From a virus, in the UHGV virus genome UHGV-0179250: a stretch of DNA of 26,811 nucleotides; one strand, 5' to 3'. The notes under the pieces are model-generated. The model did not search any database, had not been told where the DNA came from, and saw only the letters and a program-made list of their open reading frames with translations. The position numbers and the translations under genes are program-made. Positions 1 to 26,811 of the stretch are shown piece by piece (the first letter of the stretch is position 1; each line of letters opens with the position of its first letter).

Positions 1-500
1 CCACCGGAAAGAAAAACATGGCTTCGCACTGGTTTGGTACCAGTCAGTGGCAGTTACCGAATGAGGCCGATTACAGTAAACTGCAGGCGCTGTTTGTACG
101 TGTGGCGGCAGAAAAACACCAGCGTGGTGAACTGGAGCAGCCACACCACCAGCTGGTCAGCACATACAGCGAACTGAACCGGCAATATGCCAGCCTGCTG
201 GAGGAATACAAATCACTGCGGCGTTATTTTTCCGTATCGGCTGTCGTTCCTTATACGGATGTCTGGACGCACAAGCCCGTGCAGTATTATCCGGGCAAAC
301 ATCCCTGTGAAAAACCGGCGGATATGTTGCGTCAGATAATTACTGCCAGCAGCCATCCGGGAGATTTGGTTGCTGATTTTTTTATGGGGTCGGGATCAAC
401 AATAAAAGCAGCATTATCGCTGGGACGGCATGCAATAGGTGTGGAGCTGGAAGAAGAGAGATTTAACCAGACTGTAAGCGAAATAAAAGAAAATAGTTAA
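1..500 (+). CDS. DNA methyltransferase, N6_N4_Mtase (beta-class) family, 5'-truncated by the window edge
   Basis: Translation contains HPCEKP (HPTQKP-like) followed by DLVADFFMGSGST (FxGxG AdoMet motif), in the order typical of this family; the frame is open to position 3 and no DPPY motif is present, so the N-terminus lies upstream. Confidence 0.75.
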   Translation, partial: TGKKNMASHWFGTSQWQLPNEADYSKLQALFVRVAAEKHQRGELEQPHHQLVSTYSELNRQYASLLEEYKSLRRYFSVSAVVPYTDVWTHKPVQYYPGKHPCEKPADMLRQIITASSHPGDLVADFFMGSGSTIKAALSLGRHAIGVELEEERFNQTVSEIKENS

Positions 501-760: not shown

Positions 761-835
<75 letters not shown>

Positions 836-1396: not shown

Positions 1397-1786
1397 ATGT
1401 CTGAACCCTTATCCGGTTCCGGCACGGCTGCGGCGCTCGGTGGGGCGACGGTATTCGGGCTGTTTACCGGAACGGATTTCGGGATTGTATTTGGTGCGTT
1501 CGCTGGTGCGTTATTTGTGGCAACAATGCCGCAGACACTTTCAGCCTGGCGTGTGGCTGCACATTTTCTGGTGTCCTTTATTGTTGGTGTGCTTGGGGCG
1601 GATGTGATGGCGTCTTACCTGGTTGAAAAACTGAATCTCCACAGCACATCCCTCGACGCGCTTTGCGCGGTACTGGTATCGGTGGTGTCGGTGAAGATTC
1701 TCTCATTCATCCACCAGCAGGATATCGCATCGCTGTTATCCGGGCTGTTCTCCCGTCTGCGGGGTGGAGGCGGTAATGTTAAGTAA
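1397..1786 (+). CDS. Putative holin (multi-pass small membrane protein)
   Basis: 129 aa with 3-4 hydrophobic helices and a charged C-terminal tail; first gene of the cassette directly upstream of the endolysin; good RBS. Confidence 0.5.
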   Translation: MSEPLSGSGTAAALGGATVFGLFTGTDFGIVFGAFAGALFVATMPQTLSAWRVAAHFLVSFIVGVLGADVMASYLVEKLNLHSTSLDALCAVLVSVVSVKILSFIHQQDIASLLSGLFSRLRGGGGNVK

Positions 1787-2054
1787 CCTTCCCGGATTAC
1801 TGAATGTGGTGTTAAGCACGGTTATCGTGCTGACGCTCTTTTTTTATCGTCGTGGTGAGTCGAGACATAAACCGCTGATGTCGTGGCTGGCCTGGCTGCT
1901 GATGCTGCTTTATGCCTTTGCGCCGCTTTGTTATCTGTGTGGTCGCTTTCCACCCGGTAACTGGCTGGTCGTCCTGATTAACCTGGTGTTCTGCGTGCTG
2001 GTGATACGAGCACGCGGGAACGTATCAAAAATCCTTGTATTACGAAGGCGCTGA
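1776..2054 (+). CDS. Small membrane protein of the lysis cassette (second holin or antiholin-like)
   Basis: About 92 aa with three hydrophobic segments; ATG at 1776 preceded by GGAGG (the ORF-track start at 1764 is GTG); its stop lies one base before the endolysin ATG. Confidence 0.45.
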   Translation: MLSNLPGLLNVVLSTVIVLTLFFYRRGESRHKPLMSWLAWLLMLLYAFAPLCYLCGRFPPGNWLVVLINLVFCVLVIRARGNVSKILVLRRR

Positions 2055-2055
2055 T

Positions 2056-2601
2056 ATGAAGTCGAAAGATGAAATTTTTGACGAAATTCTGGGAAAAGAG
2101 GGCGGTTACGTCAATCACCCGGATGATAAAGGTGGTCCGACTAAATGGGGCATCACTGAAAAAGTTGCCCGTGCACACGGTTATCAGGGCGATATGCGTG
2201 ACCTGACGCGTGGGCAGGCGCTGGAAATACTCGAGGCGGACTACTGGTACGGACCACGATTCGACCAGGTTGAGGACCTGTCTCCTGATATTGCCGCAGA
2301 GTTGTGCGATACGGGCGTGAACATGGGGCCAACTGTGGCGTCCAGAATGCTTCAGCGCTGGCTGAACGTTTTCAACCTGCGCGGGAAACTCTATCCGGAT
2401 ATGGATGCTGATGGACGCATCGGGCCGCGTACTCTTAATGCATTACGGGCATATCTGAAAAATCGCAGCAGGGATGGTGAACTGGTACTGGTGAAAGCCC
2501 TGAACTGTACGCAGGGCGAGCGTTATCTGGAGCTGGCAGAGAAACGCGAGGCCAATGAGTCGTTTGTCTATGGCTGGCTGAAAGAGCGCGTGGTGGTTTA
2601 A
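2056..2601 (+). CDS. Endolysin, GH108 lysozyme-like domain with C-terminal peptidoglycan-binding domain
   Basis: N-terminal EGGYVNHPDDKGGPTKWGIT motif typical of Glyco_hydro_108, PG_binding_3-like C-terminal half; start at 2056 (MKSKDEIF) follows an AGG-containing RBS and the upstream stop. Confidence 0.8.
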   Translation: MKSKDEIFDEILGKEGGYVNHPDDKGGPTKWGITEKVARAHGYQGDMRDLTRGQALEILEADYWYGPRFDQVEDLSPDIAAELCDTGVNMGPTVASRMLQRWLNVFNLRGKLYPDMDADGRIGPRTLNALRAYLKNRSRDGELVLVKALNCTQGERYLELAEKREANESFVYGWLKERVVV

Positions 2602-2699
2602 AAACTGACACTGAAGTGCTGAACACCCTCAACTCATGCAGGCTCTTTTCTGGGGCTACGATGAGCGAAAGTAAGGGGCATAGCATCAGATAGCAAAAA

Positions 2700-2734
2700 C
2701 CCCGGCTGCGGTAACAGTCCGGGGTTTTCTGTTT
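2700..2734 (+). terminator. Intrinsic terminator downstream of the endolysin
   Basis: CCCCGG...CCGGGG stem with inner CTG/CAG pairing, followed by TTTTCTGTTT. Confidence 0.5.
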
Positions 2735-2797
2735 CTGGCCCTGGGTAAGGCAAAGGAGAACATGAGGAAGTATAAACTAATTCTGTTGAGGTTGACT

Positions 2798-2944
2798 ATG
2801 AAAAACGGCCTTGAATTGAAAGCGCCTGTAACTGATGACATCAGCAGAGCGGTGGCTTTTGCCATTAAGTGGGTGGCGGTCGGTATCACTGTGTCTCCGA
2901 TTCTGTATGGGATGGCAAAATTGATCATTGCTGTGAAATCGTAA
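2798..2944 (+). CDS. Small hypothetical protein with C-terminal transmembrane segment (alternative start at 2762)
   Basis: ORF with GAGG RBS 6 nt before the ATG at 2798; C-terminal hydrophobic helix; no motif recognised. Confidence 0.3.
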   Translation: MKNGLELKAPVTDDISRAVAFAIKWVAVGITVSPILYGMAKLIIAVKS

Positions 2945-2961
2945 GTGGGGCAGGGGTAAAT

Positions 2962-3096
2962 ATGTCAGATAGCATTATAAAACTGGCGCGAATTCTCTGT
3001 GTGGTTGTTGGCCTTTCATTTTCAGCAATGTTGGTTGCCATTTTCATTTCCACCGCCTGGCGAGTATTGAGCCTATCCGGATTGATTGGTGGATAG
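2962..3096 (+). CDS. Tiny hypothetical membrane protein (44 aa)
   Basis: In-frame ATG inside ORF 2869..3096 with a weak purine-rich RBS; single hydrophobic helix; could be non-coding. Confidence 0.25.
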   Translation: MSDSIIKLARILCVVVGLSFSAMLVAIFISTAWRVLSLSGLIGG

Positions 3097-3100
3097 TGAG

Positions 3101-3283
3101 ATGAAGCGAAAACACTGGACACACAGAATGCCGCGAACGGCGGCGAAATGGGCACTGGTAGCGATACTGGTGCCTTTTTTCCTGGTGGGATGCGTCAGCC
3201 TGGATAAGGCGCGCCAGCTTTTCGATACAGCTTCTCAGATCTGTGAAATTGTCGACGGTGTTCGGCAGTGTATGCAGAACTGA
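3101..3283 (+). CDS. Small putative lipoprotein (lipobox LVGC), possible lysis-accessory or o-spanin-like protein
   Basis: MKRKHW...AILVPFFLVGC signal peptide with lipobox cysteine; about 30-aa mature part with 3 Cys; follows the lysis genes. Confidence 0.4.
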   Translation: MKRKHWTHRMPRTAAKWALVAILVPFFLVGCVSLDKARQLFDTASQICEIVDGVRQCMQN

Positions 3284-3457
3284 TCGCCTGTAAGAGCAGA
3301 ATATTTTGCTGAAAAATGAAGGATGCGCCGGCGTCCGGAAAGCATGAAATTCTGTGTTTGTGGCTACTCAATAAAATAAATTCTTTCTGTCTGCGCGAAT
3401 ACTCAAATGTTGATCAGCGCCCGGGGCGGTGACGGGCTTCGATATCAGGAGAAGATA

Positions 3458-3850
3458 ATGGAAAAGAAAGAAGACAAACCAATGGTAATTGGTGCTGTGG
3501 CTGTTCCGTTTAAGTTTGAACTGTCACAACTGGTGGAGATGCGCATCAGTGATGAATGGGGTGAGGTTAAAGCTCGCGCGCAGTATGCGGATGGCGAAAA
3601 CCAGTACTTGATCCACTACAAGGCTGCTGATGGTCGCGCCACAACGGCGTGGTTTGGTGAGTCAATGCTGGAAGCAACAGAAGATGATCGCCATCCGGGC
3701 TGTCCGGTATTTGCCGGTATGAAATTACCGGAAGGTGCAGTTGAACTGCAGCCGGGTGAGGTGTTCGTAATGTCAGAAGTCATTGATGGCAAACCGCAGT
3801 ATTCACGTATTGAAACTAACGGCAAGGACGTTTGTCTGGTTAGCAAGTAA
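3458..3850 (+). CDS. Hypothetical acidic protein, 130 aa (accessory/moron candidate)
   Basis: Strong RBS AGGAGAAGATA before the ATG at 3458; soluble, acidic; no recognisable motif; lies between the lysis and packaging modules. Confidence 0.5.
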   Translation: MEKKEDKPMVIGAVAVPFKFELSQLVEMRISDEWGEVKARAQYADGENQYLIHYKAADGRATTAWFGESMLEATEDDRHPGCPVFAGMKLPEGAVELQPGEVFVMSEVIDGKPQYSRIETNGKDVCLVSK

Positions 3851-3861
3851 CTTGCATTACA

Positions 3862-3884
3862 GCAGCCCTTCAGTGAGGGGCTGC
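3862..3884. terminator. Hairpin between convergent genes (possible bidirectional terminator)
   Basis: GCAGCCC/GGGCTGC 7-bp stem with 8-nt loop between the 3' ends of CDS 3458..3850 (+) and 3894..4106 (-); no strong T-run on either side. Confidence 0.3.
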
Positions 3885-3893
3885 GATAATGTT

Positions 3894-4106
3894 TTAGTTA
3901 TCTTTTATGAATCCGTTAACGGCCCATCCGACAAGTCTGAGTATGCCGTATGTCAGTAAGGCACATACCAGGGAAACTAATACAGCAAATAACGAGATTC
4001 CTGTACCAGCACCTGTTAATAAAAAGAAACCAAAGCTCAACATCAACACCAAAATAGCCAACAGAACGCCTGTCCGGTGAAATCCTTTTGAAATAGTATT
4101 TTTCAT
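3894..4106 (-). CDS. Small two-helix membrane protein (70 aa) encoded antisense to the late operon; moron candidate
   Basis: Only minus-strand ORF in a gap between + strand genes; two hydrophobic helices; GGAGA RBS; own promoter-like element upstream. Confidence 0.5.
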   Translation of the reverse strand: MKNTISKGFHRTGVLLAILVLMLSFGFFLLTGAGTGISLFAVLVSLVCALLTYGILRLVGWAVNGFIKDN

Positions 4107-4138
4107 TTGTTCTCCGTATAGGTTTTTAAGGAATGGTT

Positions 4139-4167
4139 ATTTTACCATCAGGAAAGTGAAATTCTAT
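4139..4167 (-). promoter_or_regulatory. Candidate extended -10 promoter (TGgTAAAAT) for the minus-strand membrane-protein gene
   Basis: Minus-strand TGGTAAAAT at 4139-4147, about 30 nt upstream of the start codon; weak -35. Confidence 0.3.
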
Positions 4168-4516
4168 GCCATCACGGATCCCCCGCGCATGCCGTAAGCG
4201 AGGCTGTGCAGGCACAACGACAGACAGTTCTGGCTACTGCGATAAACATCGTGGTGAAGGCTGGGCACAGCACCAGCGCGGACTGAGCCGCCACCAGCGT
4301 GGCTATGGCTCAAAATGGACGCTGATTCGTGCCCGTATTCTGAAGCGTGATAAAGGTTTGTGCCAGTTGTGCCTTCTGGATGGCGTGGTCAGCGAGGCGA
4401 GAACCGTTGACCACATCATCCCGAAAGCTCGCGGTGGTACGGACGCAGACAGTAACCTGCAGAGCCTGTGCTGGCCCTGCCATAAAGCGAAAACAGCGCG
4501 CGAACGAATAAAGTGA
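4166..4516 (+). CDS. HNH endonuclease (terminase-associated, HK97 gp74-like)
   Basis: Cys-rich N-terminus plus DHIIPKARGG...N...LCWPCH HNH motif; position immediately upstream of the small terminase gene. Confidence 0.8.
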   Translation: MPSRIPRACRKRGCAGTTTDSSGYCDKHRGEGWAQHQRGLSRHQRGYGSKWTLIRARILKRDKGLCQLCLLDGVVSEARTVDHIIPKARGGTDADSNLQSLCWPCHKAKTARERIK

Positions 4517-4659
4517 TAATCATTCTCACTTGTGGGGGCGGGTCAAATCCCTGCAGCCCTGGCTGTCCGGGACCGCCCGCCAACCCTTCTTCGCATCGCC
4601 GCAGGTTCGAAAACTTTTTTTTGGGAATGCGATCAAACGATTGATAGGTAAAACCGATT

Positions 4660-5142
4660 ATGTCAGGACCCCCGAAAACCCCGCCACGCCTGCATTTGAT
4701 ACGAGGCAACCCCTCAAAGCGCCCCGTTAAAGACTCCAAAAAAACCGCTAAAAAGGACGAAAAAGGTCTCCCTAAAATTCCGCAGCATTTAGGGGCGCAG
4801 GGGAAGTACTGGTTCAGGCGAATGGCAGAGGAGCTGAATGCGGAAGGGATCATTTCTCAGCTTGATGCGCGTGCACTCGAGTTGCTGGTGGAAGCCTACA
4901 CCGAATACCGGCATCACTGCGAAATACTCGATGTTGAGGGTTATACCTACCGCACGGAAACGCAGAATGGCGATGTGATGATCAAGGCACATCCGGCTGC
5001 GGCGATGAAAGCGGATGCCTGGAAGCGGATCCGGGCGATGCTTGCAGAGTTTGGTATGTCACCGGCAAGCCGGGCGAAAGTAAATACCGCCGGACCGGAT
5101 GATGTTGATCCGCTGGCGGAACTTTTAAAAGCGAGAGACTGA
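4660..5142 (+). CDS. Terminase small subunit (P27 family)
   Basis: N-terminal ...LIRGNPSKRP... motif characteristic of the P27 family; stop overlaps the large terminase start. Confidence 0.8.
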   Translation: MSGPPKTPPRLHLIRGNPSKRPVKDSKKTAKKDEKGLPKIPQHLGAQGKYWFRRMAEELNAEGIISQLDARALELLVEAYTEYRHHCEILDVEGYTYRTETQNGDVMIKAHPAAAMKADAWKRIRAMLAEFGMSPASRAKVNTAGPDDVDPLAELLKARD

Positions 5143-21498: not shown

Positions 21499-22504
21499 TA
21501 CGCTGACTGCGGTAAAAGATAAGTTTGGTCCGGGTAAGAACGGATTTACTGACGGAAATATTCGGACGGGGCGTCTTGCCACCTGGCTGAACAGTGCCAT
21601 GTGGGATGCCATTCAGGAGGAAATGTGCGCCGTTATTGAGAGGGCCGGGATAGAACTGAATAAAGAAGAACACGATCAGCTATATAAAGCCATATTGTTG
21701 CTGGCAGGTGGTGTGATTAACGAAGTGGCATTGCTGGCAAAAAATAATCTTTCGGATGTGGAAGACAAGGATGAGGCTGTTGAAAACCTCGGATTAAAAC
21801 CCACGGTGGACAAGGCAAAAAATGCCGTTCAGCGTGATGGTGACACCATGACCGGAGAACTAAAAATCCGTGGTGTTAATGCGCTGAGGATTTTCAACGA
21901 CGCTTTTGGCCTGATTTTTCGTCGTTCGGAAGAGTTCCTGCACCTTATCCCTACCAGTGAAGGTCAGGGCGAAAACGGTGATATCGGCCCATTAAGGCCA
22001 TTTGCTATAAATCTGAGAACAGGTGCTATATCTGTCAGCCACGGGGCCAAAATTGATGGTGGGCTGGCGCTTGGTACAGATAACGCGCTGGGTGGAAACT
22101 CAATTGCTTTCGGGGATAACGATACCGGCCTGAAACAGAATGGTGATGGCCTGCTGGATGTTTATGCCAATAGCGTGCATGTGTTGCGTTTTCAGGCTGG
22201 CAGTATCCAGAGTAATAAACCTGTAAACGTTACCGGGCGGGTAACACCGTCAGACTACGGAAACTTTGATGCCCGTTACCAGACCAAATCAGGGGGCGTG
22301 CAGAATTTTCAGTACACCAGTGAGGTGTTTTACAACCCTGGTGGGAATGAGCGCAGCTGGACGTTTCGGGCACCTTCTGGTTGTGTTTTGTCAGGCATTA
22401 ATGTTCAGGACACTGGCAGTAACTCTGCAGATAATATCGGTGGCGTGTATTACAAACAGGCTCAGATTTATATCAATGGTGCATGGCGATCCGTATCAGG
22501 TTAA
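21485..22504 (+). CDS. Tail fibre protein (short fibre, Mu gpS position)
   Basis: About 339 aa, Gly/Asn-rich C-terminus; start MHRIDTL with GAGG RBS; followed by a Tfa chaperone. Confidence 0.65.
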   Translation: MHRIDTLTAVKDKFGPGKNGFTDGNIRTGRLATWLNSAMWDAIQEEMCAVIERAGIELNKEEHDQLYKAILLLAGGVINEVALLAKNNLSDVEDKDEAVENLGLKPTVDKAKNAVQRDGDTMTGELKIRGVNALRIFNDAFGLIFRRSEEFLHLIPTSEGQGENGDIGPLRPFAINLRTGAISVSHGAKIDGGLALGTDNALGGNSIAFGDNDTGLKQNGDGLLDVYANSVHVLRFQAGSIQSNKPVNVTGRVTPSDYGNFDARYQTKSGGVQNFQYTSEVFYNPGGNERSWTFRAPSGCVLSGINVQDTGSNSADNIGGVYYKQAQIYINGAWRSVSG

Positions 22505-22517
22505 TTAAGGAGAAATA

Positions 22518-23048
22518 ATGGAACTCGTAAACGTTACGCGTTACTACCCTGAAGATATGCCTTATGGTGAAGGCATTCAGTATTTCCGTAGTGAAGACGG
22601 GCAGGATTTTTATGAATCACTGGATAAGTTCACGAAGAAATACAAGCTGTGCACGCATCCTGAAACCGGCATTATTTATTCCATGGCGGAAGATGTATCC
22701 CGCCTTTATCCCGTTGGTTTTACCATTGTGGAAGTGGATGAACTACCGGAAGGATTTTGCATTGAAGCCCGCTGGTATTATAAAGACGGTGAAGTGCTGC
22801 CGGTCCCTGTTGACTACCGGCAGCAGGCAGAGTCGGAGCGTGCACGTCTTACTGCGATTGCCGAACGGGAAATATCCGATAAGAAGACGGATTTACTTCT
22901 GGGAATCATCAGTGATGAAGAAAAAGAAAAGCTGACAGCCTGGCGCATTTACGCGAAATCGCTGCAGGCGATGGATTTCAGCACCATCACTGATAAAGTC
23001 TCATATAACGCCATTGAATGGCCCGTCTCTCCGGAAGCCTCTTCCTGA
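22518..23048 (+). CDS. Tail fibre assembly protein (Tfa family)
   Basis: 176 aa ending ...AIEWPVSPEASS, the C-terminal signature of Tfa/gpG-type chaperones; strong RBS. Confidence 0.75.
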   Translation: MELVNVTRYYPEDMPYGEGIQYFRSEDGQDFYESLDKFTKKYKLCTHPETGIIYSMAEDVSRLYPVGFTIVEVDELPEGFCIEARWYYKDGEVLPVPVDYRQQAESERARLTAIAEREISDKKTDLLLGIISDEEKEKLTAWRIYAKSLQAMDFSTITDKVSYNAIEWPVSPEASS

Positions 23049-26000: not shown

Positions 26001-26564
26001 ATGGAAGTAAAAAAAATCGAAAATGCGCGCTGGCTGGAAAGCGGCGCGATTGACTGCGACGTATTGTTTGAGGGGATGGACGAGGCCCTGCCGTATACAG
26101 CGACAGCAGACGATACCGCACCGACGGGCCAGCAAATCTGGCAGGAACTGCAAAGTGGCAAATGGGGTGAAATCGCCCCGTTTACAGTCACGCCTGAACT
26201 TATCGCAGCGGCAAAAGATGCCAAAAAGATGGAAATCGAGGCGTGGCGCACAGAACAGGAGGCACTGCCGTTCACGTTCGAATGGAATGGTCGCACCTGG
26301 AACGCTGGCCCCGACTCAATGGCTCGTCTTTATCCGGTGGTAATGGCTGCAAAATCTGATACGGCACGAACCGCCCTTGCGTGGGGCGACGCTGATAATC
26401 AACAGGTGAAACTGTCGATGCCGGAACTGGAAGAACTGGCAGCCGCGATGGCGCAGGCGCAGGTCGATCGCAACGCCGAGATTTATCGCCGTCAGCGAGA
26501 GATGAAGGATGAACTGAATAATCTGGAGGATTTGGCTTCAGTTCGAGTGTTTGACGTTACGTAA
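26001..26564 (+). CDS. Putative tail fibre chaperone-like protein (DUF4376-like)
   Basis: 187 aa directly after the large fibre gene; lacks the Tfa C-terminal EWP signature; motifs EAWRTEQEALPFTFEWNGRTWNAGPDS and RRQREMKDEL resemble DUF4376 proteins as I recall them. Confidence 0.45.
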   Translation: MEVKKIENARWLESGAIDCDVLFEGMDEALPYTATADDTAPTGQQIWQELQSGKWGEIAPFTVTPELIAAAKDAKKMEIEAWRTEQEALPFTFEWNGRTWNAGPDSMARLYPVVMAAKSDTARTALAWGDADNQQVKLSMPELEELAAAMAQAQVDRNAEIYRRQREMKDELNNLEDLASVRVFDVT

Positions 26565-26615
26565 TTGGTAAGTATGCATCATGCTGAATTGTTACCCTTA
26601 GTTACAAACAGAAAA

Positions 26616-26646
26616 GCCTCTGACTTCATAATCAGAGGCTTTTTTG
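26616..26646. terminator. Intrinsic terminator at the end of the fibre operon (bidirectional-looking)
   Basis: GCCTCTGA/TCAGAGGC 8-bp stem, 8-nt loop, then TTTTTTG on + strand; T-rich on the complement as well. Confidence 0.6.
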
Positions 26647-26763
26647 AAATGCACGTGCATTCTGCGTGTATATTTTTGTCTTTTTCTGGTCAGAACGCTG
26701 TCTGGTCAGTGTCCGTAAGTGACTGTTTTTATAGTCTCTGTCCGGTTGTGGTCCTATCAAAAG

Positions 26764-26811
26764 TGGTGGAGCTGGCGGGAGTTGAACCCGCGTCCGAAAT
26801 TCCTACATCCT
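26764..26811 (-). ncRNA. ssrA: tmRNA (ssrA) 3' end, partial; gene continues beyond the right window edge
   Basis: Reverse complement reads AGGATGTAGGAATTTCGGACGCGGGTTCAACTCCCGCCAGCTCCACCA, matching the 3' T-arm/acceptor/CCA end of enterobacterial tmRNA as I recall it. Confidence 0.8.

Follow-up and report, generated by a model that had tools for sequence, protein, structure and literature searches.

The 26,811-nt stretch analysed here (the window) is a phiP27-like E. coli prophage. It carries two small genes of opposite orientation, ORF130 on the plus strand and ORF70 on the minus strand, on either side of a GC-rich hairpin and between the lysis genes and the HNH endonuclease gene (Table 1). 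The sequence-only reading had placed a gene for an acidic protein, a hairpin and an antisense gene here, and all three were found at the positions it gave them. It had also called this the sole interruption of the plus-strand operon, which is consistent with the ORF lists, where every long minus-strand ORF overlaps a longer plus-strand ORF. In comparison with phiP27, the islet region was 92% identical and matched in pieces only.

Table 1 Features of the window around the lysis-to-packaging junction
Feature	Position	Strand	Description
DNA methyltransferase	18–500	+	
tRNA-Gly	761–835		upstream of holins
Two holins	1397–2054	+	
GH108 endolysin	2035–2601	+	
Three small membrane/lipoprotein ORFs	2762–3283	+	last lysis-region stop at 3283
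ORF130 cassette	3291–3854	+	564-bp insertion/deletion: 5′ leader (to 3457) and ORF130
ORF130	3458–3850	+	130 aa, pI 4.78, AGGAG upstream
ORF130, SH3/Tudor-like barrel	3506–3682		residues ~17–75, AF2 model
ORF130, conserved linker			DDRHPGCPVF, between barrel and C-terminal domain
ORF130, small C-terminal beta domain	3761–3841		residues 102–128, AF2 model
GC-rich extended hairpin, cassette junction	3854–3892		conserved
ORF70 cassette	3892–4165	−	274 bp: promoter, ribosome-binding site, ORF70
ORF70	3894–4106	−	70 aa, two hydrophobic stretches, GRAVY 1.24, pI 10
ORF70 Shine-Dalgarno GGAG	4115–4112	−	5 nt before ATG
Predicted ORF70 σ70 promoter	4139–4166	−	−35-like TAGAAT at 4166–4161, 16-nt spacer, extended −10
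HNH endonuclease	4166–4516	+	
cos-equivalent	~4574–4583		aligns with annotated phiP27 cos, NC_003356 21806–21815
P27-type TerS	4660–5142	+	
TerL, portal, head and tail genes	after TerS	+	

Alignment of the cos-equivalent with the phiP27 cos site would make the HNH gene, ORF70 and ORF130 the last genes of the virion DNA, at its right end. The three small ORFs that follow the endolysin gene correspond to phrog_1115 (2762–2944), phrog_4906 (2961–3096) and phrog_7528 (~3101–3283), the last with the lipobox LVGC and two more Cys residues, and together they look like unconventional spanin equivalents. An Rfam scan of positions 2600–4800 gave no match inside the islet and sub-threshold matches only elsewhere. 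Among these was the P22 sar antisense RNA at 2692–2777 on the minus strand (23 bits, E 0.12), in the gap after the endolysin gene and adjoining a minus-strand promoter-like site at 2798–2769, which is probably a chance match. Other low-GC islands of the window (≤42% in 271-bp windows) were located at 281–821, covering the 3′ end of the methyltransferase gene and tRNA-Gly, and at 22371–22701 and 26471–26771, both in the tail-fibre region.

Both ORF130 and ORF70 are real genes. The dN/dS ratios of 0.06–0.31 for ORF130 and 0.13–0.36 for ORF70 indicated purifying selection, a ratio that by itself cannot pick the strand of ORF70 because the antisense frame shares its third codon positions. The ORF70 sense frame was intact in all alleles, including the remote ones, and the antisense frame was open in most and broken in the allele from Erwinia. 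The ACGGAG sequence upstream of ORF70 was kept in most alleles, the two variants being ACGGAA and ATGGAG.

The extended −10 element that the sequence-only reading had seen along with a ribosome-binding site, TGGTAAAAT, lies at 4147–4139 on the minus strand, 33 nt upstream of the ORF70 ATG. The predicted promoter overlaps the HNH start codon at 4166. Its −35-like hexamer agrees with the consensus at three of six positions. The pattern TGNTAWAAT had a single match in the window, where ~1.7 matches are expected by chance, so the evidence for this −10 element comes from its position and invariance and not from its occurrence. The full element, TAGAAy-N16-TGnTAAAAT, was invariant in 14 distinct ORF70 alleles with a coding dS of about 1. 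It was also kept in LT-II toxin prophages with a Nu1/gpA terminase of the lambda type, although the DNA beyond the −35 has nothing in common there.

The hairpin between the two genes folded with −24.4 kcal/mol on the plus strand and −20.1 kcal/mol on the minus strand (z about −5, and −5.4 for the minus strand), and none of 200 shuffled sequences folded as well. On the plus strand it is directly followed by the U-rich tract UUUUAGUUAUCUUUU and thus resembles an intrinsic terminator. The plus-strand hairpin therefore looks like the terminator that ends the lysis cassette; by analogy with lambdoid phages, late transcription modified by Q should pass through it. On the minus strand the hairpin closes the ORF70 unit, beginning 2 nt past the ORF70 stop codon, and a terminator scan found no U-tract on this strand. 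The hairpin was kept in all loci, with variation in the loop. A further ~250 E. coli genomes, as well as Salmonella phage Fels-1, carried it with neither cassette, which suggested that it serves as a common recombination joint or as a lysis-cassette terminator.

Alignment with relatives showed that both cassettes have clean junctions at this common hairpin. The ORF130 cassette sits between the last lysis-region stop and the hairpin. In an ORF130-less relative (L012) the same stop (CTGATCACCAG) runs directly into the hairpin (CATTACAGCAGCCC), and the window is 564 bp longer, with CTGATCrCCwG at one junction of the cassette and CATTACAGCAGCCC at the other. In phiP27 the hairpin (ending in GCGATAATG) runs directly into the ribosome-binding site and ATG of the HNH gene, and here the window is longer by 274 bp. 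Both genes were present in 13 fetched loci, ORF70 alone in 18, including alleles 99–100% identical to that of the window, and ORF130 alone in phiP27, L004 and L005. Among 5,426 complete E. coli genomes, ORF130 DNA was found at ≥80% coverage in 139 and ORF70 DNA in 17, and ORF130 was seen without ORF70 in phiP27 and more than 100 E. coli genomes. The locus comparison showed each gene to be dispensable in otherwise collinear prophages, and neither to be a core late gene, which bears out the earlier proposal that the region is accessory. The existence of ORF130-only, ORF70-only and two-gene loci excluded an obligate two-gene module. We consider it probable that the islet consists of two independent accessory cassettes with one recombination-prone hairpin in common, at the lysis-to-packaging junction, and that ORF70 is a moron encoding a membrane hairpin. 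The locus is a case of typical phage mosaicism and not a new two-gene system.

We applied to ORF70 the moron criteria as stated by Cumby et al. (2012; PMC3594210). The gene occupies extra DNA between genes that adjoin each other in a relative, with the 274 bp that phiP27 lacks, and its base composition deviates, with a GC content of 38.0% compared to 51.9% for the window (0.8% of 271-bp windows are as low) and a GC3 of 0.39 compared to 0.56–0.59 in the flanking genes. At the sequence level it has a promoter of its own, and at the place of a terminator there is the strong closing hairpin, which has no U-tract on the minus strand. Juhala et al. 2000 are reportedly a further source of such criteria. 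Judged by these sequence features, ORF70 is a classical moron, and the earlier description of the antisense gene as a moron with an autonomous promoter was upheld at that level by the extra DNA, the low GC content and the invariant promoter element.

A well-known gene with similar placement is lambda bor. Both bor and ORF70 are small envelope-protein genes with promoters of their own, predicted in the case of ORF70. Both are antisense to and convergent with the late operon, follow directly on the spanin genes, precede cos and terminase, and are variably present among relatives. The Bor protein, however, is a ~97-aa outer-membrane lipoprotein (serum resistance), whereas the ORF70 product has neither a signal peptide nor a lipobox and is predicted to be a hairpin of two helices in the inner membrane. 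Pfam and PHROG searches with ORF70 revealed no similarity to Bor. HK97 gp15, the first named moron product, is an inner-membrane superinfection-exclusion protein of the YebO family; like the predicted ORF70 product it is a small inner-membrane protein encoded by a cassette within a late operon, the gp15 cassette having a promoter and a terminator and that of ORF70 a predicted promoter and a closing hairpin. It differs from ORF70 in its tail-operon site, its chromosomal YebO homologues and its single-pass topology, ORF70 being predicted to be two-pass and having no chromosomal homologues. The prophage expresses gp15, which prevents the entry of DNA (PMC3594210).

A search of 5.8 billion proteins yielded 13 clusters of the ORF70 family, with members in E. 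coli, E. albertii, Citrobacter and Salmonella. The gene was detected in 3 of 185,579 species-representative genomes, all in prophage contexts, and in none of the 50,697 phage genomes on deposit. All known copies thus belong to prophages whose viability is unproven. Searches of Pfam, NCBIfam, PHROGs, PADLOC and the PDB yielded no family match for ORF70. A Pfam DUF6050 hit (E 0.009), produced by one of the 13 members, was dismissed as a compositional chance match, and NCBIfam hits to SecE and PRK08378 were weak and far below the cut-offs. The family alignment revealed two invariant juxtamembrane motifs, an N-terminal ISKGFHRxG and a C-terminal YxxxRxxGWxxxGF, which flank two hydrophobic helices joined by a short loop, and variation was concentrated in this loop. 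From the positive-inside rule, the protein is predicted to be an N-in/C-in hairpin with both termini in the cytoplasm. The ORF70 proteins were 54–67% identical at loci where the HNH, TerS and lipoprotein gene products were 93–98% identical, indicating that ORF70 either evolves fast or recombines as ancient alleles. Loop-concentrated variation together with divergence beyond that of the flanks is as expected for an arms-race gene.

Remote homologues with 38–44% protein identity had unrelated flanks. In an Erwinia rhapontici prophage (L123, 4989–5219) a 40%-identical homologue, again convergent, immediately follows Rz/Rz1 and precedes a Terminase_2/Terminase_6 pair that is unrelated; it has its own −10/−35-like elements and a closing hairpin. 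In a Salmonella enterica prophage (L030/L031, 6001–7183), the replication module is interrupted by two paralogues in tandem on the opposite strand; in the second of them the two-helix module is the N-terminus of a 299-aa protein that continues with two further helices and a PF12869 (tRNA_anti-like) OB-fold domain. The convergent position right behind the lysis genes recurred with three types of packaging genes, namely HNH/TerS-P27, Nu1/gpA and, in Erwinia, Terminase_2/6.

Several further loci deserve mention. In E. coli LT-II enterotoxin prophages (L006 and L032–L036), a 98-aa ORF130 and ORF70 are found upstream of the lambda-type Nu1/gpA terminase, and in the lysis cassette upstream of these two genes the holins are separated from the endolysin by the LT-IIA/B toxin genes. 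The ORF70 homologue of NZ_AP019856 was left unannotated. In E. coli STEC307 (L007, 2938–3186), a prophage remnant beside hyaA has no lysis side and starts inside an ORF70 homologue with a replaced C-terminus.

ORF130 belongs to phrog_1935, residues 1–115 matching positions 1–116 of the 116-position profile with an E-value of 1.2e-66. The close family consisted of 78 clusters, all from Enterobacterales, and a core domain of ~58 residues (F-x-F-x-L-x-Q-x-V … S-x-E-x-G … Y … Y … DGR … W) was detected in 686 representative clusters at E ≤ 1e-3. The earlier statement that neither protein falls in a characterised family therefore held for both, with the qualification that ORF130, through phrog_1935 and this large core-domain family, is no isolated orphan. 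Many of the core-domain relatives are stand-alone ~60-aa proteins of proteobacterial phages, and some are duplicated or fused. The phiP27 protein L33 (NP_543085) is a direct homologue, 93% identical over residues 1–95 and encoded at the same site upstream of the HNH gene. In contrast to ORF130, it has no C-terminal domain owing to a deletion of 96 bp, and the ORF70 cassette of the window is absent from phiP27. Such 98-aa forms are common, and in L004 a 40-bp tandem duplication shifts the ORF130 frame. Homologues were also found in P2-like ESSI2 phages ("L33"), between the genes for the small terminase subunit and head completion, and in phage-plasmids, upstream of ParB/Srx genes. A survey of the nearest same-strand ORFs at 61 remote viral loci with the ORF130 core returned heterogeneous neighbours, mostly DNA-metabolism genes, which gave no functional clue.

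The AF2 model of ORF130 was confident (pLDDT 87.7) with an alignment of 80 diverse homologues; a shallow alignment of 28 sequences gave an unusable model with a pLDDT of 50. HspQ was the top match to the model by two methods (HspQ/YccV-like SH3, PDB 5ycq), and hhalign of ORF130 with an approximate HspQ sequence returned a probability of only 60%. The Pfam YccV-like profile (PF08755) did not match ORF130, and a BFVD search retrieved uncharacterised small phage proteins only. The likeness of the modelled N-terminal barrel of ORF130 to HspQ/YccV is thus one of fold, and a fold alone gives no function. No plus-strand promoter was detected upstream of ORF130, so the gene is most simply a late-operon passenger. 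We picture ORF130 as a dispensable passenger of the late plus-strand operon whose product, a soluble acidic two-domain beta protein, would bind a host protein or DNA late in infection as a small adaptor. Literature on HspQ with prophages and on phiP27 with morons contained nothing on ORF130 or ORF70.

For ORF70, we propose that host RNA polymerase would transcribe the gene in the repressed lysogen and that its product would be an inner-membrane helical hairpin whose juxtamembrane motifs are cytoplasmic and conserved and whose periplasmic loop varies. Such a protein would keep the genomes of superinfecting phages from crossing the inner membrane, or would change the envelope in some other way that benefits the lysogen. 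Superinfection exclusion at the inner membrane, suggested by analogy with HK97 gp15, T4 Imm and P22 SieA, is the leading candidate role but a tentative assignment that we regard as possible rather than probable; no sequence or profile similarity of ORF70 was found to the known exclusion and defence proteins searched (PADLOC-DB, gp15/YebO, Imm, SieA and Cor). Given the position of the cos-equivalent, ~430 bp separate the ORF70 promoter from the right end of virion DNA. If this end enters the cell first, as would be expected by analogy with lambda, ORF70 may also be transcribed immediately after DNA entry. A bolder reading would have ORF70 found a new family of prophage inner-membrane hairpins (ISKGFHR and GWxxNGF) that provide exclusion or defence in a manner unlike that of any known system. 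Its recurrent antisense site at the extreme right end would allow expression both from the first entering DNA and in the lysogen; separately, ORF130 could mimic HspQ, redirecting Lon or binding to hemimethylated DNA. We consider this reading rather unlikely.

The sequence-only reading had suggested that ORF130 and ORF70 might work as a pair, and a joint toxin-antitoxin, abortive-infection or exclusion module would suit a small acidic soluble protein and a small membrane protein encoded next to each other, convergently, in the window and in 13 fetched loci. Each gene nevertheless stood alone, with its own junctions, in many otherwise collinear prophages, near-identical ORF70 alleles being found without ORF130, and the two genes lie on opposite strands under different regulation. 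Moreover, ORF130 is often C-terminally deleted or frameshifted where ORF70 is intact, its core domain is widespread without an ORF70-like neighbour, and PADLOC contained no match for either protein. A joint module is therefore very improbable, and the pairing was not supported. A lysis-related role for ORF70 (antiholin, holin-like protein, or protector against premature or external lysis) draws on its place directly downstream of the spanin/lysis genes in four phage backgrounds and on its size and N-in/C-in two-helix layout, which resemble class II holins. However, ORF70 is always encoded on the opposite strand with a predicted σ70 promoter, and would thus not share the expression of the late lysis genes. 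The holins and endolysins in its company are unrelated (M15, GH108 and lysozyme), and the Salmonella homologues reside in a replication module. To our knowledge, lambda bor, at the same kind of site, has no lysis role. Holin searches gave no significant match, the best being Phage_holin_3_6 (E 0.44) and phrog_126 (E 0.25), each for one of the 13 members. The C-terminal tail of only ~9 aa has a net charge of 0 and is not highly charged as in class II holins or pinholins, and that specific candidate was rejected in spite of the two helices. We judge a lysis role for ORF70 unlikely.

ORF70 could also act on its own as a membrane toxin or abortive-infection effector, after the manner of type I toxins, its mRNA being countered by antisense late transcription or an unrecognised small RNA: the protein is small, very hydrophobic and basic, the gene is fully antisense to the late transcript, and its mRNA could gain stability from the 3′ hairpin. 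Type I toxins, however, have 19–60 aa and a single helix, and a 70-aa protein with two helices and conserved cytoplasmic motifs is unlike them. Rfam provided no small-RNA match, no plus-strand promoter was found inside or downstream of ORF70, a constitutive-looking promoter is unexpected on a toxin gene, and one paralogue uses the ORF70 module as the N-terminal anchor of its 299-aa protein; the toxin explanation is accordingly quite unlikely. Finally, RNA might be the main product and the peptide secondary, with read-through of the U-less hairpin from the ORF70 promoter silencing leaky lysis and late expression in the lysogen. The lack of a U-tract on the minus strand and a promoter more strongly conserved than the coding sequence are consistent with this idea. 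The invariant motifs of ORF70, the purifying selection and the remote homologues at unrelated flanks speak against it, since conservation at the protein level is not expected if only transcription mattered, and we rate an RNA product as highly improbable.

Should ORF70 turn out to act in exclusion or defence, the prophage-encoded inner-membrane blocks on phage DNA entry would gain a family that is very small and easy to test; otherwise, the locus represents ordinary phage mosaicism with two hypothetical proteins. The occurrence of neither, either or both cassettes around one hairpin provides a clean natural example of the shuffling of a moron and a late-operon passenger, and this cassette polymorphism sits at the lysis-packaging junction of toxin-carrying (Stx2e, LT-II) prophages.
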